64,000 nt of DNA from a virus (IMGVR_UViG_3300021387_001106:34633-98632), one strand, 5' to 3'; positions 10,770 to 44,392 are shown, counted from the first letter of the stretch. The notes: generated by a model from the letters alone, not told the origin. Numbers and translations are program-made.

Positions 10770-10816
10770 AACTGCAAAACAGCCGGCGTGCATAAAAACC
10801 ACGTCGGCTCATATAT

Positions 10817-10887: not shown

Positions 10888-10895
10888 CTCAAACG

Positions 10896-10925
10896 AGGAG
10901 GCGGCAAGCCTCCTTTTTCATTTTC
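10896..10925 (+). terminator. intrinsic terminator after the tRNA-like element
   Basis: aggaggc-ggcaa-gcctcct plus T run. Confidence 0.6.
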
Positions 10926-10946
10926 CGAAAACAGAAGGAGTACGGA

Positions 10947-17398: not shown

Positions 17399-17460
17399 GT
17401 TACCTAAGAAAAAAGCGGCAGGAGTACGGTAAAGATTATCACTCGCCGTAAGGAGAGAGC

Positions 17461-20400
17461 ATGGCAAGCAGGAAGGAAAAAATCGACTCGCTCAGGCGCT
17501 ACACGAACTTAATACAGAAGCAGACCGGCAGAGTCGTAAGACCCTACCGCATGGACGGCTATGTCAACATGCTCACCAAGTACGGCACGTCCCGTGATGC
17601 TTCGGAAAGATATGAGTTTAAACAGGAACCACCGGTACCGGATGAACAGCTCACTTCCTTCTACGAGGGGAACGGACTGTTCGCCAAGATCATAGACGCA
17701 CCGGCGGAAGAGGCCATCAAACACGGCTTTGAGCTGGAAGGGCTTCAGGACCAGAACATCGAGGACTTCTACACGGAAGCACTTGAAGAGCTGGACTGGG
17801 AAGAGACCATGATGACAGCAGTCAAATGGGCAAGGCTTTTTGGCGGTTCCATCGCTGTCATGATGATCAATGACGGCAGGGGTGTTGATGAGCCTCTCGA
17901 CTGGAAGAACATCACATCTATCGACGACATCAGGATATATGACCGTTCCCTAATACAACCAGACTACGGAAGCATGTTCTCCTACGACCCGGACGACCCG
18001 TTCGGGACAAGGGGGAGCCGGTTGGGTATGCCTGAATACTACGATGTCTACAGCCGGTACGGGAGCTTCCGGGTGCACGACTCCAGATGCCTTGTATTCC
18101 AGAACGGTATACTCCCTGAGAACACGAGCAATTCTGTCTATCAGTTGTGGGGTATGCCGGAGTACATCAGGCTCAACAGGGCGATACGTGACGCTGAGGT
18201 CGCACACGGAACGGCTCCAAAGATGCTCGACCGCTCCATACAGGCGGTCTACCGGATGAAAGACCTTGCAACAGAACTTGCTACAGAGGAAGGCGAGGAC
18301 AGGGTTCTCAGGCGTCTACAGACCATCGACATGGCAAGGGGGCTTTTAAACTCCATCACCATCGACAGCGAGGGCGAGGATTACGACTTCAGGCAATTTT
18401 CATTTACCGGCGTTTCCGAGGTCATCGACACGACATGCAACTTCCTGTCTGCATTGACTTCCATCCCACAGACCATCCTGTTCGGAAGGTCACCCGCCGG
18501 TATGAACTCCACGGGCATGGGAGACCTTGAGAACTGGTACAACTACCTTGAACGCATCCAGAACCGCATGATAAAGAAGAACCTGAGGTATCTTCTGAGC
18601 ATCATCTTTCAGGCGGGCGTATGTACCGGTGAGATAGATGAGGTCCCACCTATCAAGGTCAAGTTCAACCCGCTGTGGTCACTGTCCGATCAGGAAGAGG
18701 CGTCCCTTGAACAGATGAGGGCGCAGGTTGCGAACACCAATGCCAACACCGCTATGGTCTACGTCCAGATGCAGGCGCTCGACCCTTCTGAGGTCAGAAA
18801 GAAACTTGCGGATTCCGAGGAGTTTGATGTTGAGACTCTGCTCGACGAATATACCGAGGAGGAACTGGAAGAAAACGACCCTATGAAGAAACAGGCGGAA
18901 GGTGCTATGCCGGGTATGGAAGGCGGCGGTATGCCGGGAATGCCGGGGATGCCTGCAATGCCCGGTGGACCGGAAGGAGCACCGCCTGAAGGGGCACCGC
19001 CACAGGCACCGGATGCTATGGGCGGAACACCTACTGGAAAGGTTCAGCCTAATGACGGCCCTAAACCCGAAATGGCGCAGGGCGGCAAAGAAAAGGATAC
19101 GGATATTGGCGGGAACGCCCCGGCTGCTGCACCGGCAGCAACAAAACTTCCTGTTGATATGAGCGGGAAGGAAAAGGACAAAGCAGAGGAAGCTAAGGAA
19201 GAGCTCAAGAAGCCTGTAGACAAGGCTAAAGACAACACTCAGGAATCGACAGCTAAGCCAGAAGAAAAGGCAGAAGATGCAGAGGACACTCTGCGCAATG
19301 CATGGCTTGGTGTCGGGCCTGAAGAAGAAAAGCCCTCTGATAAAAAGATTATCAAAAAGCCAAAAAAGCCCGTCGACCCGCTCCCGGGGGATACCCTTCG
19401 GAACGCGTGGCTGGGAATCACTCCAAAAGAAGAAGAGGATGAGGAGGACACGCTCACAAAAGCATGGCATGGAACAGAACCGGTCGATACTGAGGATACG
19501 CTCAGGAACGCATGGCTCGGTAACATTCCCGTGAAACCGCCTCATGGCTCCAGGATCGTCCGTACACGCAAGGGGGATATTTCTATCAGGGACTTCCGTG
19601 CGGCGTCCAGAGAGGACGAAGAGAACCCTCTGACGGCAATGTACGACCATGAGATCACCGCCAGAAATGGCAAGACCTACAGGGCGTTTGAGGGCGAAGG
19701 CTACAAAGCCTATGGCGAGAGGATGCGTGAAAGCTCCCGTATGGATGCGGGTGCGCAGGGTGCAGTCGGCGTGTATGTCATCAAGGATGGCAAGATACTG
19801 ACAGGCATTCGTGGTGAAGGGGATGGACAATACCTTCTCTGCGGTCCCGGCGGACACATCGAAGAAGGTGAGACCCCCGGACAGGCTGCAATACGCGAGA
19901 CACAGGAAGAGTTTGGTATCACACCCATGGAGCTTATCCCGTTCGGGAAAGGGGAAAAGCAAAGCAACGGTCTACGGCCTGACCTGTTCCTATGTGTCAG
20001 GTTTGAGGGGAAACCCAAGTGCGATGAACACGAGATGCACAATCCGAGGTTCACAGCCATCGAAGAGATCGAGCACTCGGGCCGCCTGTTCAGGCCGTTT
20101 GAAAACGGCATCCAGAAGCTGATACAGGCAGTTACTGGAAAGAACATCCACGCAGATGATGAAAAGTGGATTACTGTCAACGGAACACACGTACTTGTTG
20201 ATGATGATGGAACCGCTAAAAACGGCGGCAAGCTCAAAGGAATGTCTTTTTCAAAAGCCGAGAGCGAGGAAAGCGCAAAGCAGACCAATGCTCCCGGCTC
20301 AAATAAAATACTCTTCCAACCGTCAAAGACTAAGATTAACAGGGAAATCTCTGATATAGCGGATAAGAGCACGCAGGATACGGTTGAAGATGACATTAAG

Positions 20401-21633
20401 AAGATTGGGAAGCTGCTTGACACACTTGAACCCGGCTCCGTAGTCACTGTCCCGGCAAATCTTGCGGGGGATGATAAGTACACCTATACAAAAGATGAAG
20501 ATGGAAGATGGGGTGGAAAAGGCACCAACGGAACATGGAAAGCTGAGGACATCGCGTGGGATTTTCTCTATGAAGACCCGAGGGAACGCGCATATATCAG
20601 CAAGTCCGCATTATCGGAAACTGAGAAAGAAAAAGACAGACAGAGCTATGAGGCACGGAATTTCCGCAATCAGGAATCCCCGTGGGCCGGTGACAACTCA
20701 TTGGCTCAAATGGCTGAGGTACAGCTTCAGAGGGAAGACCTGAAGAAAGCCGGTGAAGGCACCGTAGCGGTCGATAAGGATGGAAGACAGCTCCAATGCC
20801 ACGGAGATGGCGTATGGACAGACAGGGACGGAAACATCGTGAAGAATCCATCCGGGCTGAAAGTGGAAGGTGACTACTTCGATATAAACTGCGGATTGAA
20901 CGGCATGGATCCTATCGAAATAAGCAAGGTCAGGGACGTGTTCGATAAAATGCCACCGGATATTCAGGGTATATACGAAAAAACCTTCAGGGAACATGGC
21001 GTAAGACCGTCTGAGGAAGGATGGGACATCTCATATTTCAAACCGTCAGATGGCCGTGTATATCTCCGCGAGGGGTCGTCAGCGGGCACCTTCTTCCACG
21101 AGATGAGCCATGCGCTTGACAGAGGGGCCGTAGACATAGAGTACGTAAAAGAAAACGGAGAGAAATACAGGGTGACGTCTGCGGCGGAAAACCTTGACTG
21201 GCTTGCGCATCCGCTTAAAGAAAAGGGAAGAGAAGACTTCGAGACGATGGCAAAAATCGTCGGATTTAATACTAACGGGAAGGGATGGTTCGCCAACGAG
21301 AAAGAAGAACAGGCGTCCGTCCGACAGTTCATCGACTGGGCATATAAGTATTCCGATATACCGGGATTTGAATGTGTCAGCGATGCAGTAAGCGCAATGA
21401 CATATGACGTATGCGGGGCAAGCATATACTCTGGCGGTCATGACAGGCAGTATTGGACAGGCTCGTACCTTCAGGGCAGAAAGACATCTGCAACGAGCGA
21501 TGAATACTGGGCGAATTTCTGTGAACTTAAAGCGATGCGCTACGATACTGCTCTAAAACTCCTGAAAGTCATTACGCCGAACAGATATGCTGCGGCAGAG
21601 GCGACCTACAAAGAAGCCTTTAAGAAGAGGTAA
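17461..21633 (+). CDS. portal protein (DUF1073-like) fused to Nudix hydrolase and HExxH metallopeptidase-like domains
   Basis: N-terminal ~480 aa portal-like (KIIDAPAEEA, ARLFGGS, IPQTILFGRSPAG, FNPLW); Nudix box GGHIEEGETPGQAAIRETQEEFG; FFHEMSHALD. Confidence 0.85.
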   Translation: MASRKEKIDSLRRYTNLIQKQTGRVVRPYRMDGYVNMLTKYGTSRDASERYEFKQEPPVPDEQLTSFYEGNGLFAKIIDAPAEEAIKHGFELEGLQDQNIEDFYTEALEELDWEETMMTAVKWARLFGGSIAVMMINDGRGVDEPLDWKNITSIDDIRIYDRSLIQPDYGSMFSYDPDDPFGTRGSRLGMPEYYDVYSRYGSFRVHDSRCLVFQNGILPENTSNSVYQLWGMPEYIRLNRAIRDAEVAHGTAPKMLDRSIQAVYRMKDLATELATEEGEDRVLRRLQTIDMARGLLNSITIDSEGEDYDFRQFSFTGVSEVIDTTCNFLSALTSIPQTILFGRSPAGMNSTGMGDLENWYNYLERIQNRMIKKNLRYLLSIIFQAGVCTGEIDEVPPIKVKFNPLWSLSDQEEASLEQMRAQVANTNANTAMVYVQMQALDPSEVRKKLADSEEFDVETLLDEYTEEELEENDPMKKQAEGAMPGMEGGGMPGMPGMPAMPGGPEGAPPEGAPPQAPDAMGGTPTGKVQPNDGPKPEMAQGGKEKDTDIGGNAPAAAPAATKLPVDMSGKEKDKAEEAKEELKKPVDKAKDNTQESTAKPEEKAEDAEDTLRNAWLGVGPEEEKPSDKKIIKKPKKPVDPLPGDTLRNAWLGITPKEEEDEEDTLTKAWHGTEPVDTEDTLRNAWLGNIPVKPPHGSRIVRTRKGDISIRDFRAASREDEENPLTAMYDHEITARNGKTYRAFEGEGYKAYGERMRESSRMDAGAQGAVGVYVIKDGKILTGIRGEGDGQYLLCGPGGHIEEGETPGQAAIRETQEEFGITPMELIPFGKGEKQSNGLRPDLFLCVRFEGKPKCDEHEMHNPRFTAIEEIEHSGRLFRPFENGIQKLIQAVTGKNIHADDEKWITVNGTHVLVDDDGTAKNGGKLKGMSFSKAESEESAKQTNAPGSNKILFQPSKTKINREISDIADKSTQDTVEDDIKKIGKLLDTLEPGSVVTVPANLAGDDKYTYTKDEDGRWGGKGTNGTWKAEDIAWDFLYEDPRERAYISKSALSETEKEKDRQSYEARNFRNQESPWAGDNSLAQMAEVQLQREDLKKAGEGTVAVDKDGRQLQCHGDGVWTDRDGNIVKNPSGLKVEGDYFDINCGLNGMDPIEISKVRDVFDKMPPDIQGIYEKTFREHGVRPSEEGWDISYFKPSDGRVYLREGSSAGTFFHEMSHALDRGAVDIEYVKENGEKYRVTSAAENLDWLAHPLKEKGREDFETMAKIVGFNTNGKGWFANEKEEQASVRQFIDWAYKYSDIPGFECVSDAVSAMTYDVCGASIYSGGHDRQYWTGSYLQGRKTSATSDEYWANFCELKAMRYDTALKLLKVITPNRYAAAEATYKEAFKKR
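19282..19524 (+). repeat. four EDTLRNAWLG-type peptide repeats in the portal linker
   Basis: EDTLRNAWLG, GDTLRNAWLG, EDTLTKAWHG, EDTLRNAWLG. Confidence 0.85.
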
Positions 21634-21861: not shown

Positions 21862-22068
21862 ATGTATATACCGCATTATGATACAAAGGCAGACAGGTTG
21901 CCATCGGACGCCACTGCTGAAGAAAAGGGAAGGTTCGAGCGCAGCCACAATGGCTATGGATGGATGCTTTTTTATAAGGAGCTTTATCCAGACCTGTCTG
22001 TCCCATATATGCGGTGGGATGGTAAGGTAATTGACAGCACATGGCTGTCCTTTTTTGATGCCGTCTAA
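21862..22068 (+). CDS. small hypothetical protein
   Basis: GGAG/AAGG RBS, 68 aa. Confidence 0.55.
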   Translation: MYIPHYDTKADRLPSDATAEEKGRFERSHNGYGWMLFYKELYPDLSVPYMRWDGKVIDSTWLSFFDAV

Positions 22069-22087
22069 CCTGTTACAGGAGATGACT

Positions 22088-23251
22088 ATGGAACGGATAC
22101 AGGCGATAAAACTGAAATCCATACAGATACGCTATCGACTCAGACAGAGGATGGACGGCGGCCCGGGTTCTGGCAACTGGGGGCACGAGGGGAGACCCGG
22201 CAAGATCGGCGGATCGGCGGAAGGCGGCGGCACACATAACCGACAAAAGAACAGGTTCGGCGGCTATACCTCGTTCAGCAAATGGAGAAAAGAATCTGCG
22301 AGGAGCCACGCGCTTACGAGTCAGGACATAAAGGATGTCTACGACTTCGAAGACATTATCATTGTCGACAAAGACGGAAACCGATACCAGAGGAGCGGGC
22401 ACAACTTTGAGTGCAAAACGACCGGGGATAGAAGGGATTTCGCTATTGGGGATGAATGCCGGCTCATCATCCCGAACAAGCTCAGTCCGAATTACAAGGT
22501 CACCCGCGATGATAAGAAGGCAATGGCCTTGAATCAGGAACGGTTTGAAAGAGCGTTCTACCCGGAGGAAAGAGGCGATGCCGATACCAGATACAGGTCT
22601 GAAGCCGGGGAAATATGGAATGGATGCAGCGAAAAAGAAAAAGATTCCATGTATAGATATACCTCGTCGGAGTATAGGAGGATAAACAAAAATGTTCGCG
22701 GCGGTAATACCGATGACGAGGAGTGCAACGAGACCATAGCAGCTATCACGGATGTGATAGACAGGTCCGAATTGAGACAGGATAGTGTCCTCAGGAGAGG
22801 AATATCGCTGGGAGCCGCTGAGAAACTGTTCGGGCTGCCAGAGGGGTATCTGGAGGCCGGCAATCATGCCGATGAAGGGAACATCTCCATGGTCGGCAGG
22901 GTCGGAACTGATGATGCGTTCATGAGCTGCGGTTCATCCCGAGATTCCGGGAATGACCGTCAGGTTGTTCTGGAGATTCTGGCTCCTGAGGGAACCAAGG
23001 CCATGTATTGTGAACCGTTTTCCGCGCACGGCTTGGGTGACAGAAAACTGTGGGACGGGAAAAGCGGACAAGAATACTTTTCCTCTGAATGCGAGAGCCT
23101 TTTGCAAAGAGGAACCACTCTACAGGTCATCAGCCACGAGATGAAGGACTCGTTTGGGTTTACATACCATACGATGAGAGCGGTTATTTTAAGGCAGGAT
23201 ACAGGAAGTTCTGAATACAGTCAAAAGATAAAAAAGGCAAAGTGGAATTGA
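22088..23251 (+). CDS. VIP2/C3-like ADP-ribosyltransferase with RMD-GGPGSGNWGH leader
   Basis: YTSSEYRRIN..., LRRG, FMSCG, SECESLLQRG (R-S-ExE). Confidence 0.75.
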   Translation: MERIQAIKLKSIQIRYRLRQRMDGGPGSGNWGHEGRPGKIGGSAEGGGTHNRQKNRFGGYTSFSKWRKESARSHALTSQDIKDVYDFEDIIIVDKDGNRYQRSGHNFECKTTGDRRDFAIGDECRLIIPNKLSPNYKVTRDDKKAMALNQERFERAFYPEERGDADTRYRSEAGEIWNGCSEKEKDSMYRYTSSEYRRINKNVRGGNTDDEECNETIAAITDVIDRSELRQDSVLRRGISLGAAEKLFGLPEGYLEAGNHADEGNISMVGRVGTDDAFMSCGSSRDSGNDRQVVLEILAPEGTKAMYCEPFSAHGLGDRKLWDGKSGQEYFSSECESLLQRGTTLQVISHEMKDSFGFTYHTMRAVILRQDTGSSEYSQKIKKAKWN

Positions 23252-23296: not shown

Positions 23297-24406
23297 ATGC
23301 CATCAATTCAGAATGACTTGAAAAGGATCCGCCTTTCCCTTAAAAAACGAAGAGAAGACGGATATACGGGAGAAAAAACATGCACAGGCGCATATAAAAC
23401 GCATGGGAAAATTGACCGGGGGGCCGCAAGTGCTATAATAAAGTTGAAGGGGGGGAAGGTACGGGCAGATAGCTGCCAAAAAGGACAAGCGGACGGCGGA
23501 CCGGGAAGCGGAAACTGGGGACATGAAGGCAGGGACACAGGTGAACCCGGCGGTTCAAAGCCCGGTGGCGGAAAGAAAAACAGGACATACCGCAATAAAA
23601 TAGGTTTCATTGCAACAATGAAGAAAGGAGACGCTAAACTTCTCGAACGGACAGACAGAAAGGTGGCTAAGATGAGGAAAAAGCTCCCCGGGCTCATGAA
23701 AGAAAGCCATGAAACATGGGAAAGCTGTGTAGCCGCCAGCAAAAGCGGGTCTTCAATCCCTTCCGGGTCTGAGGCAAGAAAAGACAGAGTTTTAAAAGGG
23801 CTTTCGCCGGGGGCACAGAAAAGGTATGACCGAGTTTTCGAAGCAGAACAAAGGATAACAAAAGACCTTATCGGCATTGCGTCCGACAGTGGAACTGAGA
23901 TGTACGGCTTGGATTTTTCGCTGAAGAAGGGTTCCTCTGTGGTAGAGAAGGTCGCAAGGAAAAGAGCGGCGGATATTGCGCGTGAACTTAAACCTAAAAC
24001 AGACGAAGAATATGTATCTCAACTCGGGGACCTTGTCAGGTACACACAACTTTGTGACCATAACAAGATGGCAGACGTCGCAAAGGGCACGCTGTCTTCA
24101 CTGAAGGCAAAAGGATATGACGTAGTCGAGGTAGACAACAAGTGGCAGGATGAGAAGTCCACATACAAAGGATTTCACATAATCGCAAAGGATAAGAACG
24201 GACAGCGGTTTGAACTCCAGATACATTCGAAAGAGAGTATGGATGTCAAGGAGCTTAACCATGTGCAATATGAAGTTGCAAGGCAGCCAAAAGCCAGCGC
24301 TTATGTCAGGGATACGCTCGACCCACAAATGGCTGAAAGAACTGCAAAAATGAAGAAGCCAAAAGGGATGAACGATCCCGCCTTGAAGTCGTGGAAAAAT
24401 GAATGA
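23297..24406 (+). CDS. RelA/SpoT-family nucleotidyltransferase (small alarmone synthetase-like)
   Basis: KKGSSVVEK, DLVRYT, YKGFH, FELQIH correspond to SYN1-4-like motifs. Confidence 0.75.
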   Translation: MPSIQNDLKRIRLSLKKRREDGYTGEKTCTGAYKTHGKIDRGAASAIIKLKGGKVRADSCQKGQADGGPGSGNWGHEGRDTGEPGGSKPGGGKKNRTYRNKIGFIATMKKGDAKLLERTDRKVAKMRKKLPGLMKESHETWESCVAASKSGSSIPSGSEARKDRVLKGLSPGAQKRYDRVFEAEQRITKDLIGIASDSGTEMYGLDFSLKKGSSVVEKVARKRAADIARELKPKTDEEYVSQLGDLVRYTQLCDHNKMADVAKGTLSSLKAKGYDVVEVDNKWQDEKSTYKGFHIIAKDKNGQRFELQIHSKESMDVKELNHVQYEVARQPKASAYVRDTLDPQMAERTAKMKKPKGMNDPALKSWKNE

Positions 24407-25801: not shown

Positions 25802-25880
25802 AGGAAGAACTCAAAGAACATAGACGATGAACTATGGGACAGCAATGACTGTTCTTTTTTTTGCACAGAAGGAGGCGCGG

Positions 25881-28800
25881 ATGACCACGCTGGATTTCAA
25901 TAAGGCGGTAATGGCATTTGTGTTCGCCTACCGTGCTGGAAATATCGAGAACGATTCTACACACATGGACAACGCTTACGATGAATGGCTCGAAGAAAAC
26001 CTCGATAAGTTTGAAGACGACGATTCAGAGGTGGCATTTGCCCAATGGAAGAACAGCGAGGGGGAAAAGCCAAGGGACTGTGATGACATCGACATGGTCG
26101 AGGCAATGTGGTTGGAATACAAAGGGCGGAGGAAAGACGGAAAAGACGATGAGGAAGGACGCTGGATTACCACGGAAAACAAGCATAAGGTGCATATCAA
26201 TGAAGAAGGCGTCGCTGACAAAGGGAATCCACATGTCCTTGCCGTGATGAACGAGGGGGAGAAAAGTGCGAGGAATAACAGCAGCCCTAAGGGGACGGCA
26301 AAGCACAAGATCGTTAATGGAAAAGATATTTCTGAATCTTACAGCGGTGAAGGAACCATAACGTCTGTCATACACGAACAGGGATTTGATGGGGTGCCTA
26401 AAGTCGTTTCGGATGATGAGTTTGATGAAGCTGTCAAAGCAAGCGGTTTTGTCGCTCAGAGGACATATTCATCAGAGTCGCCTGAGGTTCTGGATGCATA
26501 CCGGGAAGCACTTTACAGCGGGGAATGGTATGTGGAGTGTACTTATGGAAAGTCAGCATTTGGAAGGGGTATGTATACCGTATCCGATGCCTCGGGGACT
26601 ATAACAGAGGCTGCGGAAGAAGAGGTTGCGAAATATCGAAAGTATGGCCAACATAGCTATACGGAAACGATGACGCTTGCCCCGGGGGCCAAGATAGCAG
26701 ATTACAGAAAAATTGCAGAAGATTGGGAAGATGGCTTTAATCACTACAATGACCTTGAGGAAATAAAAGCCTTAGAGAATAGGGCTCAGGAAGATATTGA
26801 TAAAAAAATAAAAGGACTGGGCAAAAGAGGAAAAGAGTATCTTGATTGGGCAAAGCCTTTAGAAGAAGCCTTTTACAAAGAACAATTTAAGGTAAATTGG
26901 AAAGACGAAAAACAGATAGAAGAATACAACGGGCGGTATAAAAAATTTTACGAGGAAAAGAAAAGAAGGCTCAGCATGTTTGACCCGGATACTGCTCTTG
27001 CATTGGATAAGCCTCATAAGGCAGCTGAGAAAAGATTCAGGGAATTAGAAAAGGAGAAGTTCAAAAAAGGCATTGAGTTGCGTAAAAGATTCAAAGACAT
27101 CAACGCTTATGCAGCGTCGTTGGGATACGATGCGGTCAACGTACCCCACGGAAAGGGGCTCTTTTACACAATCATCCTGAACCGAACGAAGCTCATCATT
27201 AAAGATAAGCGAAATCGGAAAGATGATGAAGATGACAAGCACATCACCTTCCGCCCGGGAAAAGACGGACAGATGTTGGCTGTAAAAGACGGAAAAGTGA
27301 TTGGCTCGGTCTGGACAAACGATGTGCAGTCAGACGATATGCAACATGATTCCGATGAAAGCTCTGGTCCGGTGGAAAGCCTTGGGGACAAGCTCAGAAA
27401 ATTTAGGATGATCCGCAGAAAATATAGGCACGATGCATCCTTTGGAGACGAACCTGTTGATGAACTTATTGATGATTTCGGCCTTGGTGATGACGAAGAG
27501 TGGATAACAGTAAATGGCACGCATATACTCCTGAATCAAGAGGGCAAAGCGGTGAACGGCGGCGACCTTGCCGGGAAGGACTTCTCAAATGCGAAAAGCG
27601 AGCCGACCGTCGCACGCCGTCCTACACCGGAAGTCGGGAAGAGAAAGTCGACGGACTTCCTTCCACTGCATTCCTACAGGGATACAGAAACGTTTAAGGA
27701 CGCAGTGGCCTCTTATAAAGAAGCAAGTGAAAAAGCCGATGAGCTGTGGGCAAAAAGAAAAGAACTTGAAGAAGCTGTCAAAAGCGAGAGCCGACCGAAA
27801 CCGAAAGATGAATGGGATGAGGAAGATGAGTACCAGTCACTGATAGGGAAAAGGCCGAGGATATACACCGAAAAAGGAAAGAAACTCCAAGACGAGTTAT
27901 CAAAAGTCGAGAAGGAGTGGTTTAAACAGAAAAAAGCCAATGACGAAGCATCTGAAAAGCTCGATGCCATGAAAGAGCAGGAACATCAGCGTCAGGCTGC
28001 CGCCTATAAGCCGAACAAGTTCAAGGAAGCTAAAAAGGATGACTATGAAGGGTTCACGCTCGACAAGACCAGCAATTCATTTGGTGATGAGTACCTTCAG
28101 AACGGCAAGGGCAGGATCGTAGAGATGTCACCGAGGGAGTACCTTGAACGGTGTGCTTACGAGATATTCCACAACGGCACAATGGAAAGCACCATGGGGG
28201 CTGTTGACGAAAAGACAACGGACAAATACGCGGAGCAAATGAAGAACGGCGAGAAGTTCGACCTTCCATACCTGAACTACAAGGACATGGGACAGGAGGG
28301 AAGGCACAGGGCTGTAGCTGCATACAAAGCCGGTATCGAAACAATGCCGGTGCTCATTATCGGGGACCCGAAACACAGGAAAGATTCCAAACGACATGAG
28401 CGTATGGATGAAGAACCAGAAGAATGGATTACCGTGAACGGTAACCACATACCGCTTGATGGCGATAAGAAGCCTATCGGCGGACAGATGAAAGCGCTTG
28501 GGAAAGCAGCTCCAAAAGCAAAAGCCCGTCCTGCACACGGGGTGGTATCCAAAAAGACGTCACTCACTCCTGCTCAAAGGAAGCATTATTCGGACGAGCT
28601 CGAACGGATAACAGAAGCTTTCCAGAAGGAGAGGGATTTCCAGAAGAGTGTTAATCCAAAAGTGAAGGACTACGACCCGACCCCGTTTATTGAAAGCGAA
28701 AAGCGAGCAAAAGAACTCCGTGCGGAGGGGGAACGCCTCTGTGGGGAAATGCCGGCGGGGACAATTATCACTAAGGGCACCGAACTGTATGAGAAGACAG

Positions 28801-31130
28801 ATGACGGAAAATGGACAATGACCAAACCGGGAATCAGAAGGACGATCGAAAATTCGAGTGCGGCTGATTTCATAGGCGGCTATACAGATAACTCTTCCAA
28901 TTACGGGCCAAAGCTCGTGGAGAGCACGGATGAGGCAGAACAGCTTGAAGACATCTCCATGCACGACAACAGCACGTATGGGGACTGGGCTGCTGACCTC
29001 AACGGAAAGGCTCGTAAAGACCTTGTCAAGCGAGCAAAGAAAGACCCTGAGTTCAAGGAGCTGGTCGATTCCATAGTCCTTTATACAGAAGGTGGATATG
29101 TCGACCAAAGGAAAGCACTCGAAGCGGCAACGGAGACCGGACTGAAAGATGTCGATGCTCAGACAGTAGGAATGTACGCAAACGATACCATCTACAAAAT
29201 ACGGGATCTGTGGAAAGGACAGGACCTGACAGGCAGTCAGGCATCACTTGCGGGGGGCATGGCGCACCTCACGGGTGTCATCAATGCCGCAGACCCGGTT
29301 GAGAAGCCGCTGTTCCGCGCTGCTCAGGATAGGAGCATCGCAAAGACCGGGGAACAAGAACCATATGTTCCACCAAAGCCGGGTGATGTTATTTCCATAA
29401 CAGCCCCGACTTCCTTCACCGACAGCAAGGATGTTGAAACAGAAATCTCCCGGGGGAAAATGGGTGATGTCATCCACTATGAACTGGAACCCGGGGCAAA
29501 GGCCGTAAACGTAGCGGAGCTGTCACGGTATAAACAGTCAGAGTATTTGACATCTGGAAACTTCGAGGTTGTATCGGTTGATACGGAAACTCATCCATAC
29601 CCTGTTTTCAGGGACTCAGACATCACACCTGCTATACAGAAAAGAGGCGTTAAGGAAGACCAGTGGGGCAACAGATATTGCGAAAGATACGTCTGCACTA
29701 TAAAGCTCCGCCGAGTTGGTGATACAAACCTCACCGGTAAAAAAGATTCTGAAGAAGAGTATCTTGTCTACAACGGGCACTTCGACGAACGAATGGTCTT
29801 GTCTGGCGTCAGAGGGGATGCTGAGCCCGACAGTTGGATTACACTGAAGAACGGCAACCATATACCACTTGATAAGTCTGGAAAGGCTATAGGAGGCGCT
29901 GGGGGCTGGGCAGAAGGAAAAGATTTCAGCGGGGCAAAGAAGAAAACCAATGGTACCGCCGATTCCCTCACAAAGCGTGTAAAGGATGCGTACGGGAAAC
30001 CTGATTACGTTGAAGTGGCGAGTGCATTCAGAAAAGCGCTGAAGGATATGCCGGTTGGAGCATCTGTGAAAAGCGGTTATTACACATACACAAAGACTGG
30101 CGATAATGAGTATGAGTACGAGTGGAAGCCCGGCCAGAAGACAACAGTGAATGAGAACTCGGTCGTCAATGGACAGGATTTCTTTGACCCGGAAAAAGCA
30201 CCGGTGTTCAAAGACCCCGTCGGAGGGCCTGAAGATTCTCACGAAGTTAGAGAGCCAAAGGAAAGACCATCCTCTAATAAGGCTATAAGCATAAAACCAA
30301 AACTTGAGCACGCTAATTCTGGGAGCGTCGTGTTCGATAATAATGGCAATGTTTATGAAAAACAAGAAGATGGAGATTATCTAAGCCTTGGCAGCGGGGA
30401 AATATTATCCGCAGAAGAACTGACTGATAAGGGCGCTGAATTAGCGGAGTATACCGGGAAAACATCTTTTGAATATGGGGATGTTAGTCCAGACGTAGCG
30501 CAAAGCAGATATGAGGATTTAATAAAAAATCAATTCCGCAATGAAGGAAAAGCAACGCTCAACTCCGAAGAGTTCGAATCTATGGTCAATAGCGTATTAC
30601 ATTATGGAACAGGGGGTGAGTGTCAGATGATACTTGCCACACAAGATCCTGATGCTTACGCAGACATACCTGATATGGGCTTGAGTGGACGATATGAGGA
30701 GTACGCAAAAGAAGCAGATAGACTCGAAAAATTCATTGAACTGTCAAATAAATACCCCGGCACTATTTACAGGGGCATGTCATTTAACGACTCGATTCCG
30801 GGACAAAAAAAGGTTGTCGAGGACCTGATTTCGAATCTCAAACCCGGCAACGAAATAACAATGGGACATATTTCGAGTTGGTCTTCCAACGAAGGAACAG
30901 CAAGGAGTTATTCTTTAGGAGCGGTTGACCTTGAGCTGGAAAGCGGAAACAATTACTCGGTTATATATGAATGCGATAATCACAAATACGCAACAGACCT
31001 TAGCGGAATAAACCCCGAAGGTGAATGCATAGCCACAAAAGATGCCCGTTATCGTATTCGAAGCGTAGATTATAAATATGACGAGTCCTTGGAATGCCAT
31101 GTATACAAAGTCAAACTGGAGGAAATCTGA
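25881..31130 (+). CDS. 1749-aa modular (polyvalent-type) protein: four W-motif modules, three ART-like domains, one ParB-like domain
   Basis: AAGGAGG RBS; FGRGMYT..GYDAV; QEGRHRAVAA; LFRA..TSFT..QSEYL; IYRG..SSWSS..EGECI. Confidence 0.8.
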   Translation: MTTLDFNKAVMAFVFAYRAGNIENDSTHMDNAYDEWLEENLDKFEDDDSEVAFAQWKNSEGEKPRDCDDIDMVEAMWLEYKGRRKDGKDDEEGRWITTENKHKVHINEEGVADKGNPHVLAVMNEGEKSARNNSSPKGTAKHKIVNGKDISESYSGEGTITSVIHEQGFDGVPKVVSDDEFDEAVKASGFVAQRTYSSESPEVLDAYREALYSGEWYVECTYGKSAFGRGMYTVSDASGTITEAAEEEVAKYRKYGQHSYTETMTLAPGAKIADYRKIAEDWEDGFNHYNDLEEIKALENRAQEDIDKKIKGLGKRGKEYLDWAKPLEEAFYKEQFKVNWKDEKQIEEYNGRYKKFYEEKKRRLSMFDPDTALALDKPHKAAEKRFRELEKEKFKKGIELRKRFKDINAYAASLGYDAVNVPHGKGLFYTIILNRTKLIIKDKRNRKDDEDDKHITFRPGKDGQMLAVKDGKVIGSVWTNDVQSDDMQHDSDESSGPVESLGDKLRKFRMIRRKYRHDASFGDEPVDELIDDFGLGDDEEWITVNGTHILLNQEGKAVNGGDLAGKDFSNAKSEPTVARRPTPEVGKRKSTDFLPLHSYRDTETFKDAVASYKEASEKADELWAKRKELEEAVKSESRPKPKDEWDEEDEYQSLIGKRPRIYTEKGKKLQDELSKVEKEWFKQKKANDEASEKLDAMKEQEHQRQAAAYKPNKFKEAKKDDYEGFTLDKTSNSFGDEYLQNGKGRIVEMSPREYLERCAYEIFHNGTMESTMGAVDEKTTDKYAEQMKNGEKFDLPYLNYKDMGQEGRHRAVAAYKAGIETMPVLIIGDPKHRKDSKRHERMDEEPEEWITVNGNHIPLDGDKKPIGGQMKALGKAAPKAKARPAHGVVSKKTSLTPAQRKHYSDELERITEAFQKERDFQKSVNPKVKDYDPTPFIESEKRAKELRAEGERLCGEMPAGTIITKGTELYEKTDDGKWTMTKPGIRRTIENSSAADFIGGYTDNSSNYGPKLVESTDEAEQLEDISMHDNSTYGDWAADLNGKARKDLVKRAKKDPEFKELVDSIVLYTEGGYVDQRKALEAATETGLKDVDAQTVGMYANDTIYKIRDLWKGQDLTGSQASLAGGMAHLTGVINAADPVEKPLFRAAQDRSIAKTGEQEPYVPPKPGDVISITAPTSFTDSKDVETEISRGKMGDVIHYELEPGAKAVNVAELSRYKQSEYLTSGNFEVVSVDTETHPYPVFRDSDITPAIQKRGVKEDQWGNRYCERYVCTIKLRRVGDTNLTGKKDSEEEYLVYNGHFDERMVLSGVRGDAEPDSWITLKNGNHIPLDKSGKAIGGAGGWAEGKDFSGAKKKTNGTADSLTKRVKDAYGKPDYVEVASAFRKALKDMPVGASVKSGYYTYTKTGDNEYEYEWKPGQKTTVNENSVVNGQDFFDPEKAPVFKDPVGGPEDSHEVREPKERPSSNKAISIKPKLEHANSGSVVFDNNGNVYEKQEDGDYLSLGSGEILSAEELTDKGAELAEYTGKTSFEYGDVSPDVAQSRYEDLIKNQFRNEGKATLNSEEFESMVNSVLHYGTGGECQMILATQDPDAYADIPDMGLSGRYEEYAKEADRLEKFIELSNKYPGTIYRGMSFNDSIPGQKKVVEDLISNLKPGNEITMGHISSWSSNEGTARSYSLGAVDLELESGNNYSVIYECDNHKYATDLSGINPEGECIATKDARYRIRSVDYKYDESLECHVYKVKLEEI

Positions 31131-31131
31131 T

Positions 31132-34100
31132 ATGGAAAGACTGTCGCTCGGAGATCGAATGATGCTCGAAGCCGGCTTCCTTCCGATAATGTTTAATAAT
31201 AAAGGTAGCAGAAAGGATGATGATTGGGTAACCATAAGTGGCACACATGTACTGTTGAATGAAAACGGGAAAGCTCAGGGCGGAGGAAAGCTCAAAGGAA
31301 AGACATTTTCAAAAGCAAAGAGCTCCGGGGCTGGAACAGGAACCGGGGGTGCCTCGGCGCAGCGGACAAAGCGAATGCAGGATAAACTGTCAAAGGCGCT
31401 CTCCGGGAAAGGCTCCAAGGATGACAAATATGGCGCTGTAAGGGACATTCTCAAAAACTGCGAGGTTGGTTCCACGTACCGTGTCGGGGACGCGCTGTTC
31501 ACGAAGATGAAAGACACTGACGATGAGCGGGAAAGCAGCCTTGCCTTGGGAAACAGCGATTATGCGGACTGGTCTTTCAGTGACATGGTGCACATGATGG
31601 AATACCACTTCACCCATGAAAACGACCCGCCAGAATTTGTCGACAGGGGGAAGAAAAGGGCAGAAGTACAGGAAAAGATAAGCGAACTGAAGAAATCCGG
31701 TGAACTGAGCGGCACTGAGGAGATGAAGAAACTGGAACAGGGACTCATCTCAAAAGACAGCCCTGATTTCGGAAAGCCCGGAAAGTATGTCATGTACCGC
31801 AGCGGAAAAGTTGGGAAGAGGAGCGGTATGCTCTTCTTCGCACCTGACAAGGCGGGTGCTGACACTTACGCTGACCTGCATGATGGCGACACTGTGCAGT
31901 ATTCCGTGGATATAAAGAATCCTCTGGTGGTCACGGGTAGTGCTGATGGAGAGTGCCTGAGAAAAGCATGGCAGTCCCTTCACCCCGGACAGACGCCGCC
32001 AAAGAATCTGACCGGGTCATCTTGGAAGAAGATGGACAGGGAAAACGCTTCTGCGCTTGAGGGCTCACAATACGACTCCATCATTTATAAAATAGGAGAC
32101 AGGCCGCAGGAGATACAGATACCTGCAAAACGTGGCAAGGAGCTTGAAAAGCTCGCAACCTATACCACAACAGATTGGAGTCGGGCGGGACGAAGTATAG
32201 AAGACGCAATATTTGCGGACAAGTTCAAAGATGACCCGCATGACTTCAAACGAATCGACAGCAGAGAAGATTCCACTGACGACGACCTTTACGAAAACGA
32301 GGATTTCAGATACTTCCTGTGTGACTGGAAAAGGGCAAGGCATAAAGACGACGAAGAGTGGAAGACGATAAACGGGACACATGTTCTGGTCGACACGGAA
32401 ACGGGAAGTGTCAACAAAGGCCCGGATGGGCTGAAAAAATGGAGCGAGAGCAAGAAGCCAGGTCCGAATGGGTCTGGCTCTTCTCATTCTGGGACTTCTA
32501 CAGAAAAAGGGTTGTCCGGTGCCATGAAGCCCGCTCAGACGGGGTACGATATGACCCTCGATGATGGCTTTGATGATTTCGTCAGAAAGAACATGGGGAA
32601 CCGCAGGAATCCGAAAGCGCTGTACAGCTTTTATCACGAAGTCGAAGATAACGGCGGCGACGGGCACGAGGCTGTTAAGGATGAATACCAGAAATCCAGA
32701 CTGGCCATGTGTACAGAGGGTCTCAAGGAAATCAGCCGGGATGAAGCGGATGAAATCCTCTATGACAACCTGAACCATGGAACGGTACAACAGTGGTTCA
32801 GGGAATACAACCATGAGGTCAAGGACGGGCTGGTATGGCAGATGACACAGAGCCCGGGGGTACATAACGCAGCCCTGAACATCATGTACGGGAACTACAA
32901 GTACAACTGCATGGAAGAGGGGTCGGAGCCGCTTCCGTTTGAGCAGTTCCTTGTTACTCCAATCAAGATGTACAGAGGCGGCACCGGCATGGAGTACGAT
33001 GAAGCAGGAGCTTTTTCATCCTACACGTTCAACAGGAAAGTGGCAGAATCGTTCACTGGAAGCGAGGTGGGACAAGGCCACAGTTTTGACCCGAACGGCG
33101 TAGTGTATGAGGCTGAGATCCGTCCGATAGATACATATGGGAGTGTATATACGAACGGCGAATCTGAGATTCTGGTTCCGAAGATGATCGCGCCGAATAA
33201 GAACAGGGACAGTGCTGACAGCAGGGAAGATGAAGAATCCGCCAGAATGTTCAGTACAGTCGAACTGTTCGCTATGTTTTCAGTGTATGGTAACAGCTAT
33301 ACAGAGAAGAAGTTAATTGACATCGCAAGCCGGCATGGTACCATACTATTGGGAGGAAGAAACGCCCACGGGGATGAAAAGCCTGCCTCATGGATAAGCA
33401 CTGAGGAGGGCCACCATATACCCTTGAACAAAGAGGGAATCGCCATCGGCGGAGCCGGTGGATGGGCAACGGGCAAGGACTTCTCCGGGGCTAAAAGCGA
33501 GAGTAAAAGCAAACAGTCTGATAAGCCGGAAAAAAAGAAGAAGCCCGGGCAGAAAAGGGAAGCTCCACAGGGCGGAAAACCCTTTATCTACGTTGGGTCG
33601 GTTAAGCGCAACAAAGGTACAAAACCTAAGCCCACTGGTGGAAGCTCTGGAAGCTCGGAAAAACCTAAGGTATCTTCAGAGACTGGAAGGACGCCGGTAA
33701 GCAGGGTAACCCCAGAACCGACCGGGAAAAGTACGGCGGAAAAGAAACGGGAAACCAGACCTGAGGAAAAACGGCGGGAACATAGAGCTGAACCGAAAAA
33801 GGGAACAGCGGCTCATCCCTCTCCAAGAGGGGAAAACATTCCGTGCACCGGCATGAAGAATGACAACTGCGTGAAACTCCACGAGAAACACTACAAAGAA
33901 GTCGGGGCATCTGGCAGAGAGGATTACGAGAAAAAGGCAATAGACTTTATCAAACAGCCCTGCGGGGGTGACATCGACGGGTATTGCAGATGGCCTGAAC
34001 CCGGCTCCAAAAAGAAACCAGTCATTGTACGGTTCAACAGGAAGACCGGGGAGATAGGCTTCGGAATACCGGGCAGCTTCTTCCTGAGCTACTATGTTGC

Positions 34101-34194
34101 AAAGTATGATGAAGCGACTGGGAAGACGGATATTGATCGGGCTAACAGATATTTCGATAAGATTAAGAAACAGGAAGGCGGGGGAATAGTATGA
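31132..34194 (+). CDS. 1020-aa modular protein: three W-motif modules, two ART-like domains, C-terminal toxin-like domain
   Basis: GGAGG RBS; MYRSG..LFFAP..IKNPL..YDSII; MYRGG..SSYT..ESEIL; HEKH..E.G...Y...A..F. Confidence 0.75.
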   Translation: MERLSLGDRMMLEAGFLPIMFNNKGSRKDDDWVTISGTHVLLNENGKAQGGGKLKGKTFSKAKSSGAGTGTGGASAQRTKRMQDKLSKALSGKGSKDDKYGAVRDILKNCEVGSTYRVGDALFTKMKDTDDERESSLALGNSDYADWSFSDMVHMMEYHFTHENDPPEFVDRGKKRAEVQEKISELKKSGELSGTEEMKKLEQGLISKDSPDFGKPGKYVMYRSGKVGKRSGMLFFAPDKAGADTYADLHDGDTVQYSVDIKNPLVVTGSADGECLRKAWQSLHPGQTPPKNLTGSSWKKMDRENASALEGSQYDSIIYKIGDRPQEIQIPAKRGKELEKLATYTTTDWSRAGRSIEDAIFADKFKDDPHDFKRIDSREDSTDDDLYENEDFRYFLCDWKRARHKDDEEWKTINGTHVLVDTETGSVNKGPDGLKKWSESKKPGPNGSGSSHSGTSTEKGLSGAMKPAQTGYDMTLDDGFDDFVRKNMGNRRNPKALYSFYHEVEDNGGDGHEAVKDEYQKSRLAMCTEGLKEISRDEADEILYDNLNHGTVQQWFREYNHEVKDGLVWQMTQSPGVHNAALNIMYGNYKYNCMEEGSEPLPFEQFLVTPIKMYRGGTGMEYDEAGAFSSYTFNRKVAESFTGSEVGQGHSFDPNGVVYEAEIRPIDTYGSVYTNGESEILVPKMIAPNKNRDSADSREDEESARMFSTVELFAMFSVYGNSYTEKKLIDIASRHGTILLGGRNAHGDEKPASWISTEEGHHIPLNKEGIAIGGAGGWATGKDFSGAKSESKSKQSDKPEKKKKPGQKREAPQGGKPFIYVGSVKRNKGTKPKPTGGSSGSSEKPKVSSETGRTPVSRVTPEPTGKSTAEKKRETRPEEKRREHRAEPKKGTAAHPSPRGENIPCTGMKNDNCVKLHEKHYKEVGASGREDYEKKAIDFIKQPCGGDIDGYCRWPEPGSKKKPVIVRFNRKTGEIGFGIPGSFFLSYYVAKYDEATGKTDIDRANRYFDKIKKQEGGGIV

Positions 34195-41178: not shown

Positions 41179-42771
41179 ATGAAACTGAAAAGGGTGATAC
41201 GCCTTGACAGTATGCCACTAAACCGGGCGTCATTTACACCGGAAGGATTCCTGATGGATACGCCTATACTGACGTGTACGGGTATCTTTGAATACACAAA
41301 TCCTGACGGCTCTGTGAGAAAAGAACTTCGTTTGCCAGAGGAGGTCTTTTCGAAAGAAAGCCTTGCGTCCTATGAGGGTTCGCCAATCATCATAAGCCAT
41401 GACGCAGGGTTGATCACAAAGGACAATGTCGCTGAGAATGAGATAGGAACCATTCTGACGAAAGGCTTCCGTGACGGAGACAATGTCAGGGCAAAAATCG
41501 TAATCCATGACACGGACGAGATGAAGGAAAGTGGACTGAAGGAACTTTCCCTTGGCTACAACCTTGACCTCGATGAAACTCCCGGGGAATGGAACGGAGA
41601 ACCGTATGATGCGGTTCAGCGGAATATCCGCATAAACCATCTGGCACTTGTCAGAGAGGCAAGGGCCGGGGAACAGGCACGTTTGAACATCGATGGCAAA
41701 GGTGCTGAAAAGAAAGGAGAAGACATAATGGGTTACAGAAAACTGACCAAGACCAGAACAAGGGCAAAGACAAGAAGAGTGAGACGCTCTGATGGCATTC
41801 TCTCTCCTGATGAGCTGAAAGAGGCGATCAAGGAGTACAGGAAACGTCATCCCGAAGCCGGTCAGGGCGGCAACAAGGATGAGGATGACGAAGAGAAGAA
41901 ATATGCGATCCCCGCTGTTGAGCAGGACGACGACGATGTCTCCCCTGAGGAAGCAGCAGCCGAGAAGATCAGGCAGGAAATGCAGGCGAAGCTCGATGCC
42001 GAGGAGGATGACCTCGCTCAGGCAAACGAGACCATTCAGCATCAGGACGAGGACATCCAGACCCTTCTGGACATCATCGACACCCTGCTTGCGGAGCGCG
42101 ATTTCAACGGCTCCAAGACTGATTCCGACGATGAGACTCTCCCCACTGAGGAAGAGAACACCGATGAAGATGAGGAGGTGATCCCAGAGGACGAAAACAC
42201 CGACGAGGACGAGGAGTTCGCTGACGAGGAGAACACCGACGAGGATGAGGAGTTCACCGACGAGGAGAACACCGACGAGGACGAAGAGTTCCTTGACGAG
42301 GAGAACTCCGACTGCGACGACGAGGAGCTGAAGGAAGACGACGATGAGGAAGAGGAGCTCATCGAGGACGATGCAGACGAGGACATCCCGGATGCAACCA
42401 AGGCCGAGGCTGCCGTGATGAACGCTGACAGCATCGACAGGATCGTCCGTGACCGCGTCAAGCTGGGCATCGTTGCCGACAAGCTGCATCTCCGTGGACT
42501 GGAGAACATGTCCATGAGAGCCGCCAAGAAGGCAGTCATCCGCGTGGTCCGTCCTTCCATCAATCTTGACGGCAAGGGCAACACCTACATCAATGCCATG
42601 TTCGATCTGGCCTGCGATGATGTGAAGGTCCGTTCCCGCAAGACCACCCGGTACCAGAGGAAGCAGATGTTCAACAAGGATTCCCGCAGAGCGGTATCCA
42701 GAAGGGGCAACTCTGCTGAGGATGCACGCAAGAAGATGATCGCGCGTCTTCAGAAGAAGAGAAACAAATAA
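41179..42771 (+). CDS. DUF2213 prohead protease fused to an acidic scaffold
   Basis: [37 protein letters not shown]. Confidence 0.85.
42148..42330 (+). repeat. tandem ~33-36 bp repeats encoding E(E/D)ENTDEDEE in the scaffold
   Basis: About five units visible in both DNA and protein. Confidence 0.85.
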
Positions 42772-43312: not shown

Positions 43313-44392
43313 ATGGCTAAGAAAAGACACACATCCTATGACAGGGCTGACCTGAAAGCCCTTCGTAATTCTGGTATCCCTGCGACCATCATGGCCTCTG
43401 CCGGTACCAGATTTGACAGCGTGGACGACGCGTCTGTCTTCTTCGCTCGTGAACTCGACCACGTCAAGGCACAGTCCTATGACGTTGAGTATCCTGAGCT
43501 GACTGCTCTGTCCCTGTTCCCCCAGACCTCTGAGGCGGATGAAGGCGCAGAGACCATTACCTACTACACCTACGATAACGTCGGTCTCGCGAAGGTTCTG
43601 GACAACTACTCCACCGACCTTCCCAGAGCAGACGTGATCGGTAAGCCCAGCTTTGCAAGCATCAAATCCATCGGTGACAGCTACGGCTACTCCGCACAGG
43701 AGATGCGTGCATCCCGGCTGGCCGGCAAGTCCCTTGACGCAAGAAAAGGTGAATCCGCTCGTTATCAGGTCGACAACCTGATCAACCGTATCGCATGGGC
43801 CGGTGACAAGGGCTCCGGTCTGATGGGCGTCCTGTCTGAGGGCCAGAACATCCCTCTCTATCTTGTCGCAGCCGGCGGCACCACTGGCAAGACCAAGTGG
43901 ACCGAGAAGAGCGCAGACGAGATTCTGGACGATGTCAACGGCATGGCGAAGCAGGTCGCAAAGGTGACCAAGAACGTCGAGCGCCCCGACACCCTGTGTG
44001 TCCCTGCTGACGTTTACATGGACATCTCCACCAGACGTATCCCGGATACAAGCACCACCGTCCTGAAGTTCGTTCTGGATCACGCTCCCTACATCAAGGA
44101 AGTCATCTCCACCGCCGAGCTGGATGCTGATTCCCCTGAGACCAACCCTTATGCAGTGACCGGCGTCACCTATGAGGTTGACGGCCAGAACTTCACTACC
44201 ACTGAGGGCGTGGGCGTTGCGTTCCTGTTCAAGAACGACGTTCGGAAGCTGGCACTGGAGAACCCTATGCCCTTCCGCCAGTATCCGATCCAGGTCCGCA
44301 ACCTTGACACCGTTGTCCCCTGCGAGGCAAGGACTGCCGGTGTTATCGTTTACTACCCTCTGTCCTGCCTGATCGCGGTCGGCGTCTGCTGA
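43313..44392 (+). CDS. major capsid protein (DUF2184-like)
   Basis: FFARELDHV, DLPRAD, YGYSAQE, ends VYYP; strong codon bias; followed by a terminator. Confidence 0.9.
   Translation: MAKKRHTSYDRADLKALRNSGIPATIMASAGTRFDSVDDASVFFARELDHVKAQSYDVEYPELTALSLFPQTSEADEGAETITYYTYDNVGLAKVLDNYSTDLPRADVIGKPSFASIKSIGDSYGYSAQEMRASRLAGKSLDARKGESARYQVDNLINRIAWAGDKGSGLMGVLSEGQNIPLYLVAAGGTTGKTKWTEKSADEILDDVNGMAKQVAKVTKNVERPDTLCVPADVYMDISTRRIPDTSTTVLKFVLDHAPYIKEVISTAELDADSPETNPYAVTGVTYEVDGQNFTTTEGVGVAFLFKNDVRKLALENPMPFRQYPIQVRNLDTVVPCEARTAGVIVYYPLSCLIAVGVC

Follow-up and report, generated by a model that had tools for sequence, protein, structure and literature searches.

A phage portal protein extended by about 900 residues carrying Nudix and zinc-peptidase-like domains as putative head cargo

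Several phages load proteins into the prohead, trim them with a protease and eject them with the DNA, as the T4 internal proteins and Alt (whose capsid-targeting sequence is cut by gp21) and the ejection proteins of phiKZ and SPN3US do. The T4-type trimming motif is short and common to cargo and capsid protein. Polyvalent proteins, as defined by Iyer et al. 2017 (PMC5512222), include PBECR, 2H and InPase effectors fused to portal or MuF proteins, and zincin metallopeptidases are their commonest domain; Iyer et al. 2022 (PMC9503650) described fusions of Nudix domains with portal, MuF or prohead protease and predicted that these domains are injected. The portal-effector claims of these papers are all computational. 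This work concerns a portal gene in IMGVR_UViG_3300021387_001106:34633-98632, a 64,000-nucleotide stretch of viral DNA (the window) that makes up the 3' end of an IMG/VR virus record of 98.6 kb (estimated completeness 96%), in which all large genes lie on the + strand. The gene product, P0001, is a normal DUF1073 portal over its N-terminal ~480 residues, and in its C-terminal ~900 residues a disordered tether leads to an intact Nudix hydrolase and then to a complete, tagged cargo unit with the zinc peptidase at its end. We consider it reasonably probable that P0001 acts as a portal-anchored polyvalent effector, whose tethered cargo would be freed by the prohead protease and ejected with the DNA. 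The central idea of a first-pass annotation of this DNA, that the portal carries enzymes as cargo, is already in the literature as a computational prediction (PMC5512222, PMC9503650). New are the three-part architecture, a rare family of modules resembling anthrax lethal factor (LF) and the Pro-Pro endopeptidases (PPEPs), and, as judged from sequence comparison, cargo boundaries at which the Asp-specific site of the capsid protein appears to recur, combined with interchangeable tags that would be retained.

Several features bring P0001 close to the polyvalent proteins of Iyer et al.: a virion structural domain is joined to several effector domains in a gene within the head-morphogenesis cluster, the peptidase is zincin-like with an HExxHxxD pattern, Nudix and ADP-ribosyltransferase (ART) domains belong to the recurrent repertoire, and packaging and injection are predicted. 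At least two unrelated effector domains (Nudix and the zincin module) share one polypeptide with the portal, among packaging and head genes, the combination by which a polyvalent protein is recognised. Unlike in those systems, the peptidase module matches no Pfam polyvalent-metallopeptidase model, and the layout of leader, [RNHK]xD site and short tag, the two tag types (W-tag and G-tag) and the link to a DUF2213 prohead protease are, as far as we found, undescribed in the two papers. Compared with T4-type cargo, the proposed protease is of the DUF2213 rather than the gp21/assemblin-like type, the P1 residue is Asp instead of Glu, and the cargo is attached covalently to the portal, not targeted to the scaffold; a conserved tag is also proposed to be retained on the mature cargo.

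The closest cultured relative is gp30 (828 aa, 8956-11442) of the Faecalibacterium phage FP_Brigit (NC_047909), annotated only as 'portal protein', whose portal core is 58% and whose Nudix domain is 41% identical to those of P0001. The FP_Brigit genome has 62 kb against 99 kb here, with the same head module of MuF, DUF2213 protease, cement protein and PF09950 capsid protein, and gp30 has x-x-D junctions both before (TNAD) and after (DRMD) its Nudix domain. It differs in having no DTLRNAWLG repeats, W-tag or HExxH module, and carries a different C-terminal unit behind an HPRDxxGxF motif. In this portal and in the homolog P0238, D-R-M-D and then F-N-E-A-D-H-P-R-D-E-N-G-Q-F follow the Nudix domain; HPRDxxGxF may be a third type of tag.

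The portal assignment draws on several profiles. Residues 63-425 match Phage_portal_3/DUF1073 (PF06381) in Pfam with E 2e-72 and 244 bits (cut-off 33.8), covering positions 2-356 of the 357 in the profile; PHROG portal family 15528 spans residues 18-480 (E 1.6e-186), and the same region matches the solved portals 9jlf, 9l01, Pam3 8hds and E217 8fvh. A search across the 98.6-kb genome with the fusion protein found no second portal and, with this single match, the fused protein must be the functional portal. Its gene (coordinates of all features in Table 1) lies between the terminase (TerL, 13620-16052) and the genes for MuF, protease, cement protein and capsid downstream, and the cargo genes around it encode ART, RelA/SpoT-like and multi-tag proteins. 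By analogy with the solved homologous portals, it would form a dodecamer at one vertex with its C-terminus inside the head. Near the N-terminus, residues 30-32 (17548-17556, +) read R-M-D followed by G-Y-V-N, and FP_Brigit has R-E-D followed by G-Y-V-N; D32 is invariant across 13 homologs and could reflect N-terminal trimming of the portal or be merely a structural residue.

The first-pass annotation had proposed a portal extended by ~900 aa with Nudix and zinc-peptidase-like cargo. Pfam, PHROG and a fold model of the one open reading frame (ORF) bear this out, and the layout it had described is in place: P/G/M-rich linker, repeats, RMD at 760-762, HAD at 897-899 and HEMSH at 1213-1217. It had also considered an assembly artefact. 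The record does come from a metagenome, and the peptidase module is a separate gene in an Oscillospiraceae prophage (L017), as would suit an assembly or frameshift error that had united separate genes. The ORF has 0 internal stops, however, and a continuous coding signal, and P0002 (1454 aa), encoded on an independent 149.6-kb ENA contig, is 66% identical and collinear across 100% of the length of P0001, taking in linker, repeats, Nudix domain, tag and HExxH module. Fused relatives number in the thousands and include a cultured phage and complete bacterial genomes. Because of the collinear P0002, the fused homologs and the prophage loci of Clostridia, the artefact is excluded, and we give this explanation practically no credence.

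Among the best 120 portal homologs from a collection of 5.8 billion proteins, 119 combine portal and Nudix; an ADP-ribosyltransferase is added in ~100 of these 120 and a zeta-toxin kinase or PRTase in others. A profile scan of species-representative genomes gave 71 prophage loci. With few exceptions these lie in Clostridia (Oscillospiraceae, Lachnospiraceae, Acutalibacteraceae, Christensenellaceae, Gemmiger formicilis, Eubacterium plexicaudatum ASF492 and Parablautia), and at 47 of the 71 the portal ORF includes an intact Nudix box. The phage likely infects a gut bacterium from the Oscillospiraceae or a family related to them.

Between portal core and Nudix domain lie a variable linker and a set of repeats, and Pfam returned nothing meaningful for the linker or for the region after the Nudix domain. 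One linker motif, APAAAPAATKLPVDMS at residues 553-568 (19117-19164, +), follows the pattern A-P-A-A-A-P-A-A-T-K-L-P-x-D-M-S and is conserved in P0002, P0013, P0059 and other divergent portal-Nudix proteins. Its terminal Asp could mark a further processing or docking site. The DNA copies of the DTLRNAWLG-type repeats are just 65-72% identical, from which it follows that the repeats are old and under selection.

The Nudix domain is recognised directly. Residues 767-870 match NUDIX (PF00293) in Pfam at E 9e-13 and 48.8 bits (cut-off 21.1), and all positions of the box G798-x5-E-x7-R-E-T-Q-E-E-F-G-I820 (19852-19920) fit the consensus G-x5-E-x7-R-E-U-x-E-E-x-G-U, a box that is intact in the homologs examined. 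The nearest sequence matches are MutT/MTH1-type enzymes. Across the portal clade, the cargo always starts with Nudix, and it is the terminal unit that varies; a frequent partner is ART, fused in an abundant form of 1026 aa, and here an ART is encoded 400 nt downstream of the fusion ORF. This association is the sole, indirect hint at an ADP-ribose- or NAD-related substrate. Most likely, the Nudix domain acts on an ADP-ribose-, NAD-related or other nucleotide substrate alongside co-packaged ADP-ribosyltransferases.

The same persistence of Nudix and ART, in one portal polypeptide in most of the best homologs or as neighbours here, would also suit enzymes that act mainly in the producing cell before assembly, with the portal fusion merely ensuring co-expression; the Nudix enzyme may, for example, clear ADP-ribose or NAD-derived products and so shield the producer from the phage's own late ADP-ribosyltransferases. 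We regard this as very unlikely, since co-expression needs no fusion, and the position at the C-terminus of a structural protein, the shared tag grammar and the protease-type junctions all point instead to encapsidation.

The C-terminal module belongs to a rare family: a HMMER scan of 1.84 billion representatives recovered just 59 related clusters, and the module is C-terminal in the full-length matches (proteins of 438-1922 aa). In an alignment of 50 sequences, H1213, E1214 and H1217 of the HExxH motif, D1308, H1327 and E1348 are invariant, and D1220, Y1331 and W1332 nearly so; E1348 is the probable third metal ligand. The module carries the HExxHxxD pattern by which Iyer et al. 2017 (PMC5512222) characterise a phage-type clade among the metallopeptidases of polyvalent proteins. 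An AlphaFold2 model built on this alignment reached pLDDT 94.4 and pTM 0.90. With the C-terminal model as query, Foldseek retrieved nothing from the PDB at E <= 1e-3 (the top match being the ArdC metalloprotease protein, E 0.02), and a profile search of PDB sequences gave only one match, the lethal factor core at E 0.39. In an all-against-all structural search anthrax LF ranked first (Z 7.0), followed by PPEP-2 (Z 6.2, root-mean-square deviation 3.4 Å over 144 residues, 19% identity), PPEP-3 (Z 5.4) and the LF-like domains of Certhrax and edema factor, a moderate similarity, as Z 5-7 lies in the aligner's grey zone. Among predicted viral structures, the nearest folds belong to MuF 'minor capsid proteins', proteins of head morphogenesis, polyvalent proteins and an M34 endopeptidase from a phage.

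Because these families agree although the scores are moderate, the model supports naming the module an LF/PPEP-like zincin whose catalytic residues are apparently intact; it is said to work like these enzymes and is filed under neither M34 nor a Pfam family because it has no sequence-profile membership. Like LF and the Pro-Pro endopeptidases (MEROPS M34-type), it combines HExxH with a downstream Glu, a nearby conserved Tyr and a similar helical/beta core. Unlike them, it shows 9-19% identity, Z 5-7 and no match to PF07737, and has the additional conserved residues D1308 and H1327. A host protein is the most likely substrate of the peptidase.

Stand-alone homologs of 440-550 aa display the same folded unit behind a basic leader, an R-x-D motif and a short tag. 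In the Oscillospiraceae prophage L017, a portal-Nudix gene (1187 aa) is directly followed by a separate gene for a 552-aa protein with its own leader and G-tag, which is 35% identical to residues ~940-1390 of P0001 (E 2e-83). From this free-standing module it follows that the protein in the window represents a portal-Nudix gene fused to a neighbouring cargo gene.

How such cargo might be released is suggested by the boundaries between the domains. Accessible [RNH]-x-D motifs in the extension end at D719, D762 and D899, the other matches lying within folded domains. The residue preceding the G-tag is Asp in all 23 non-redundant contexts, 21 of which have R, N or H at P3, and most of the 122 W-tag contexts run R-x-D, a short acidic or Pro-containing spacer and then W. 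In this genome, [RNH]-x-D stands <=10 residues upstream of 11 of 13 tags, compared with 6.1% of random positions (P = 3e-12). The Nudix domain, which is untagged, has x-x-D 5-8 residues before its first strand in ~25 portal homologs, with SRMD then AGAQG here and TNAD then AADTD in FP_Brigit as examples.

The capsid protein has a comparable junction. Besides the DUF1073 portal, the head module comprises MuF (37106-38044), the DUF2213 protease, an E217/Pam3-type cement protein and the PF09950 capsid protein, which reads T-R-F-D35 / S-V-D-D-A-S-V-F-F-A-R-E-L at its propeptide junction (M-N-F-D / D-D-S-D-A-S-V-F-F in FP_Brigit). In the alignment, this Asp is invariant across Brigitvirus, Drexlerviridae and Chaseviridae, exactly at the start of the conserved core. 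The N-terminus of the mature capsid protein of phage TLS, determined by Edman degradation, is ASDMGIW (PMC11447400); in the TLS sequence it directly follows G-A-K-N-D27, which aligns with D35 of the window. TLS and a sister Tlsvirus have the same head module, with a maturation protease homologous to the DUF2213 protein of the window (35% identity, E 8e-27). Cleavage after the junction Asp is established experimentally in this homologous system. The cargo junctions, at tags and at the Nudix boundary, carry [RNHK]-x-D as capsid D35 does. The RMD/Nudix and HAD/W-tag junctions singled out by the first-pass annotation are upheld, by conservation in homologs and by the Edman-mapped Asp cleavage in TLS. 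By analogy, the DUF2213 enzyme would also be the one that cuts the portal extension.

Literature searches on the specificity of DUF2213 proteases yielded nothing useful, and in the E217 paper the first 65 capsid residues are invisible. The DUF2213 protein itself has tandem, highly acidic repeats of the E-E-N-T-D-E-D-E-E type (residues ~325-400) and a basic C-terminal tail, features that suggest a scaffold function built into the protease protein. A possible self-cleavage site is the L-N-I-D at the end of the DUF2213 domain, which reads L-N-L-D in TLS.

Alternatively, the C-terminal zincin may itself cut the polyprotein, and perhaps neighbouring polyproteins, in the head or after injection. Such a role was proposed for the metallopeptidases of polyvalent proteins (Iyer et al. 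2017, PMC5512222), the HExxHxxD signature of the phage-type clade is present in the family, and its PPEP relatives cut linkers rich in Pro, as the tether also is. Yet the same x-x-D and tag junctions occur in the abundant portal-Nudix-ART proteins and in the FP_Brigit portal, polypeptides from which the module is absent; the junction motif is widespread and the module rare, and the motif also agrees with the site of capsid maturation in a phage that has a DUF2213 protease. Autocatalysis is distinctly unlikely on these grounds. As a general processing enzyme, the zincin was rejected, as the junction motif is widespread in relatives that have no such module.

The mechanism that we favour, release by the prohead protease, can be laid out in a few steps. 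The only portal protein of the genome would have absorbed downstream cargo genes. Portal C-termini are expected to face the capsid interior, and for that reason prohead assembly would load twelve copies of each enzyme in the absence of a separate targeting step. The DUF2213 prohead protease would then cut behind the Asp of [R/N/H/K]-x-D motifs, at D719 and/or D762 ahead of the Nudix domain and at D899 ahead of the W-tag, to give the products predicted in Table 1, each at twelve per virion should the portal form a standard dodecamer. The freed proteins would stay in the head, be ejected with the DNA and act early in infection. The first-pass annotation had likewise supposed that twelve copies of each enzyme would sit at the exit channel and that an injected Nudix enzyme could degrade nucleotide signals or ADP-ribose.

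Conversely, the extension may never be cleaved, so that the ~900 residues stay on the twelve subunits as an internal tethered body that is not injected and might organise DNA, plug the channel or act only within the capsid or at the vertex. Portals do remain with the virion, processing rests on inference, the long disordered tether (residues 481-760) and the repeats could form a flexible leash, and N4 vRNAP is packaged unprocessed though it carries a zincin domain (PMC5512222). What makes an uncleaved extension unlikely is that the catalytic motifs of both enzymes are conserved, as would suit activity on cellular substrates, that the same module is free-standing and tagged in L017 and elsewhere, and that the Asp motif is common to every cargo boundary and to the capsid propeptide junction.

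A number of observations weigh against release by the DUF2213 protease or against the functions assigned to the cargo. Two tags of this genome lack R, N or H at P3; P0002 has C-M-D rather than R-M-D before its Nudix domain, and the motif is short and loose. No [RNH]xD occurs between the portal crown and D719, and the mature portal would therefore retain ~240 disordered residues. The W-tag would remain on the mature cargo. The sole experimental anchor for cleavage is the one TLS site, in a distant phage whose protease has the identity given above, and a literature search found no proteomic, structural or enzymatic data for FP_Brigit or the present phage. As regards the enzymes, Pfam gave no match at E <= 10 for residues 881-1390, including ATLF (PF07737) and MPTase-PolyVal, and the LF/PPEP similarity is as moderate as stated above. 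For the Nudix domain, every NCBIfam equivalog fell far under its cut-off (best MutT, 36.7 bits against 97.9); NCBIfam thus assigns it to no substrate-defined subfamily, and its substrate is not inferable for this reason.

The tags extend beyond the fusion protein. The W-tag occurs thrice in an ORF of 1767 aa and thrice in one of 1038 aa, and a single time close to the N-terminus of each of the ORFs at 34437, 35445 and 38406. The alternative G-tag, D-GGPGSGNWGHxGR, is found in three head-module proteins, namely ORF 16468, the ART and a RelA/SpoT-like protein at 23297; W- and G-tags are interchangeable among orthologous modules. A W-tag profile search recovered 93 longer proteins with ART, PARP, zeta toxin, Ntox50, ATLF, PBECR2, LPD3, DUF2213 or portal-plus-Nudix domains, which, as a set of domain assignments, corresponds to the repertoire of head-packaged polyvalent effectors. 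AlphaFold2 predicts the W-tag, with modest confidence, as an isolated beta-hairpin with disordered flanks, unpacked against the downstream domain, as would be expected of a docking peptide. A full-text search for the tags (WITVNG, SGNFGH, GHAGRPG) and the motif found no description in phages, in a searchable literature that is incomplete.

Tentatively, and with somewhat less conviction than for the locus itself, the extension can be read as an instance of a general capsid-cargo code, not yet described, of Clostridia phages with DUF1073-portal/DUF2213-protease modules, in which the portal serves as carrier. Such a code may have three elements: a leader that is basic and amphipathic (or, in its place, an upstream domain), a site for cleavage at [R/N/H/K]-x-D, and an interchangeable short tag, which may be the W-I-T-x-N-G-x-H hairpin, G-S-G-N-x-G-H-x-G-R-P-G or possibly H-P-R-D-x-x-G-x-F. 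The tag, kept on the mature enzyme, may direct retention in the head or passage through the tail. As a carrier, the portal may provide a fixed number of 12 copies, with its DTLRNAWLG repeats possibly serving as docking sites for other tagged cargo.

Table 1. Features of the portal-cargo fusion gene, its predicted products and related genes of the window.
Feature	Residues	Position in window	Strand	Remarks
Shine-Dalgarno AAGGAG		17450..17455	+	5 nt 5' of ATG; strong ribosome-binding site
Portal-cargo fusion ORF (P0001), entire		17461..21633	+	1390 aa; sole portal gene of the genome
Portal core	~18-480	17512..18900	+	Phage_portal_3/DUF1073, PHROG 15528
Linker	481-608	18901..19284	+	low complexity; P/G/M-rich, then K/E-rich; disordered
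Four D-T-L-[RT]-[NK]-A-W-[LH]-G (DTLRNAWLG-type) repeats	609-690	19285..19530	+	close relatives only
Candidate protease site R-E-D719		19609..19617	+	SRED before EENP; kept in P0002; directly precedes Nudix in P0005
Candidate protease site R-M-D762		19738..19746	+	SRMD before AGAQGAVGVY; 6 residues before first Nudix strand
Nudix hydrolase domain	763-893	19747..20139	+	Pfam match, intact Nudix box
Candidate protease site H-A-D899		20149..20157	+	IHAD before DEKW; precedes W-tag
W-tag		20167..20301	+	W903-ITVNGTHVLV beta-hairpin and G/K/S-rich tail; 10 copies in 7 proteins of the genome
Folded N-terminal part of cargo unit	~955-1137	20323..20871	+	helical/beta subdomain, then small SH3/Tudor-like barrel
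Zincin-like metallopeptidase domain	~1138-1390	20872..21630	+	HExxH at 21097-21111
Neighbouring cargo gene		22031..23251	+	leader-RMD-G-tag-ADP-ribosyltransferase (ADPrib_exo_Tox)
Two giant multi-unit cargo ORFs		25827..34194	+	1767 and 1038 aa; three internal W-tags each
DUF2213 head maturation protease		41179..42771	+	acidic scaffold-like region; proposed processing enzyme
Major capsid protein (PF09950)		43313..44392	+	propeptide junction T-R-F-D35 then S (43406-43417)
Predicted product: portal with tether and repeats	to 719			~80 kDa
Predicted product: small peptide	720-762			43 aa
Predicted product: Nudix	763-899			~15 kDa
Predicted product: W-tagged peptidase unit	900-1390			~55 kDa

Several neighbouring genes show further features of the region. 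The gene at 23297-24406 (+) encodes a 369-aa G-tagged head-module protein, whose C-terminal half resembles the C-terminal region of XopAD/skwp-family type III effectors (NCBIfam E 6e-19, far under the cut-off) and, weakly, RelA/SpoT (Pfam E 1.4e-3). Within the cargo block, a radical SAM protein is encoded at 24959-25801 (+), and the early region of this genome contains a paralog with 27% identity (genome position 7797-8891, outside the window). A 57-aa ORF at 24674-24847 (+) is 67% identical, across 36 residues, to positions 473-508 of the 1767-aa polyprotein (25827-31130), a small module duplicated as a free-standing gene. In the ORF at 31078-34194, residues 905-1011 match the C-terminal part of portal PHROG 15528. 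The large terminase (+ strand) has 810 aa, and its additional ~380 N-terminal residues match PHROGs of long TerL proteins as well as P-loop (DnaC-like/primase-like) families. A two-domain protein resembling phage DAM and GNAT enzymes (PF22555 and PF22559; 10947-12407, +) adjoins a ParB-N-like protein just upstream of the genes for the terminase, a neighbourhood that FP_Brigit shares.

Enzymes fused to portals have so far been genome predictions, and this locus offers a concrete model of twelve copies per virion and three predicted cut sites, for which very abundant relatives in gut prophages and the cultured phage FP_Brigit exist. If the Asp code and the retained tags hold true, they would explain how ADP-ribosyltransferases, Nudix hydrolases, kinases and peptidases are loaded and delivered by widespread gut phages, and would provide a simple handle to load foreign proteins into phage heads.

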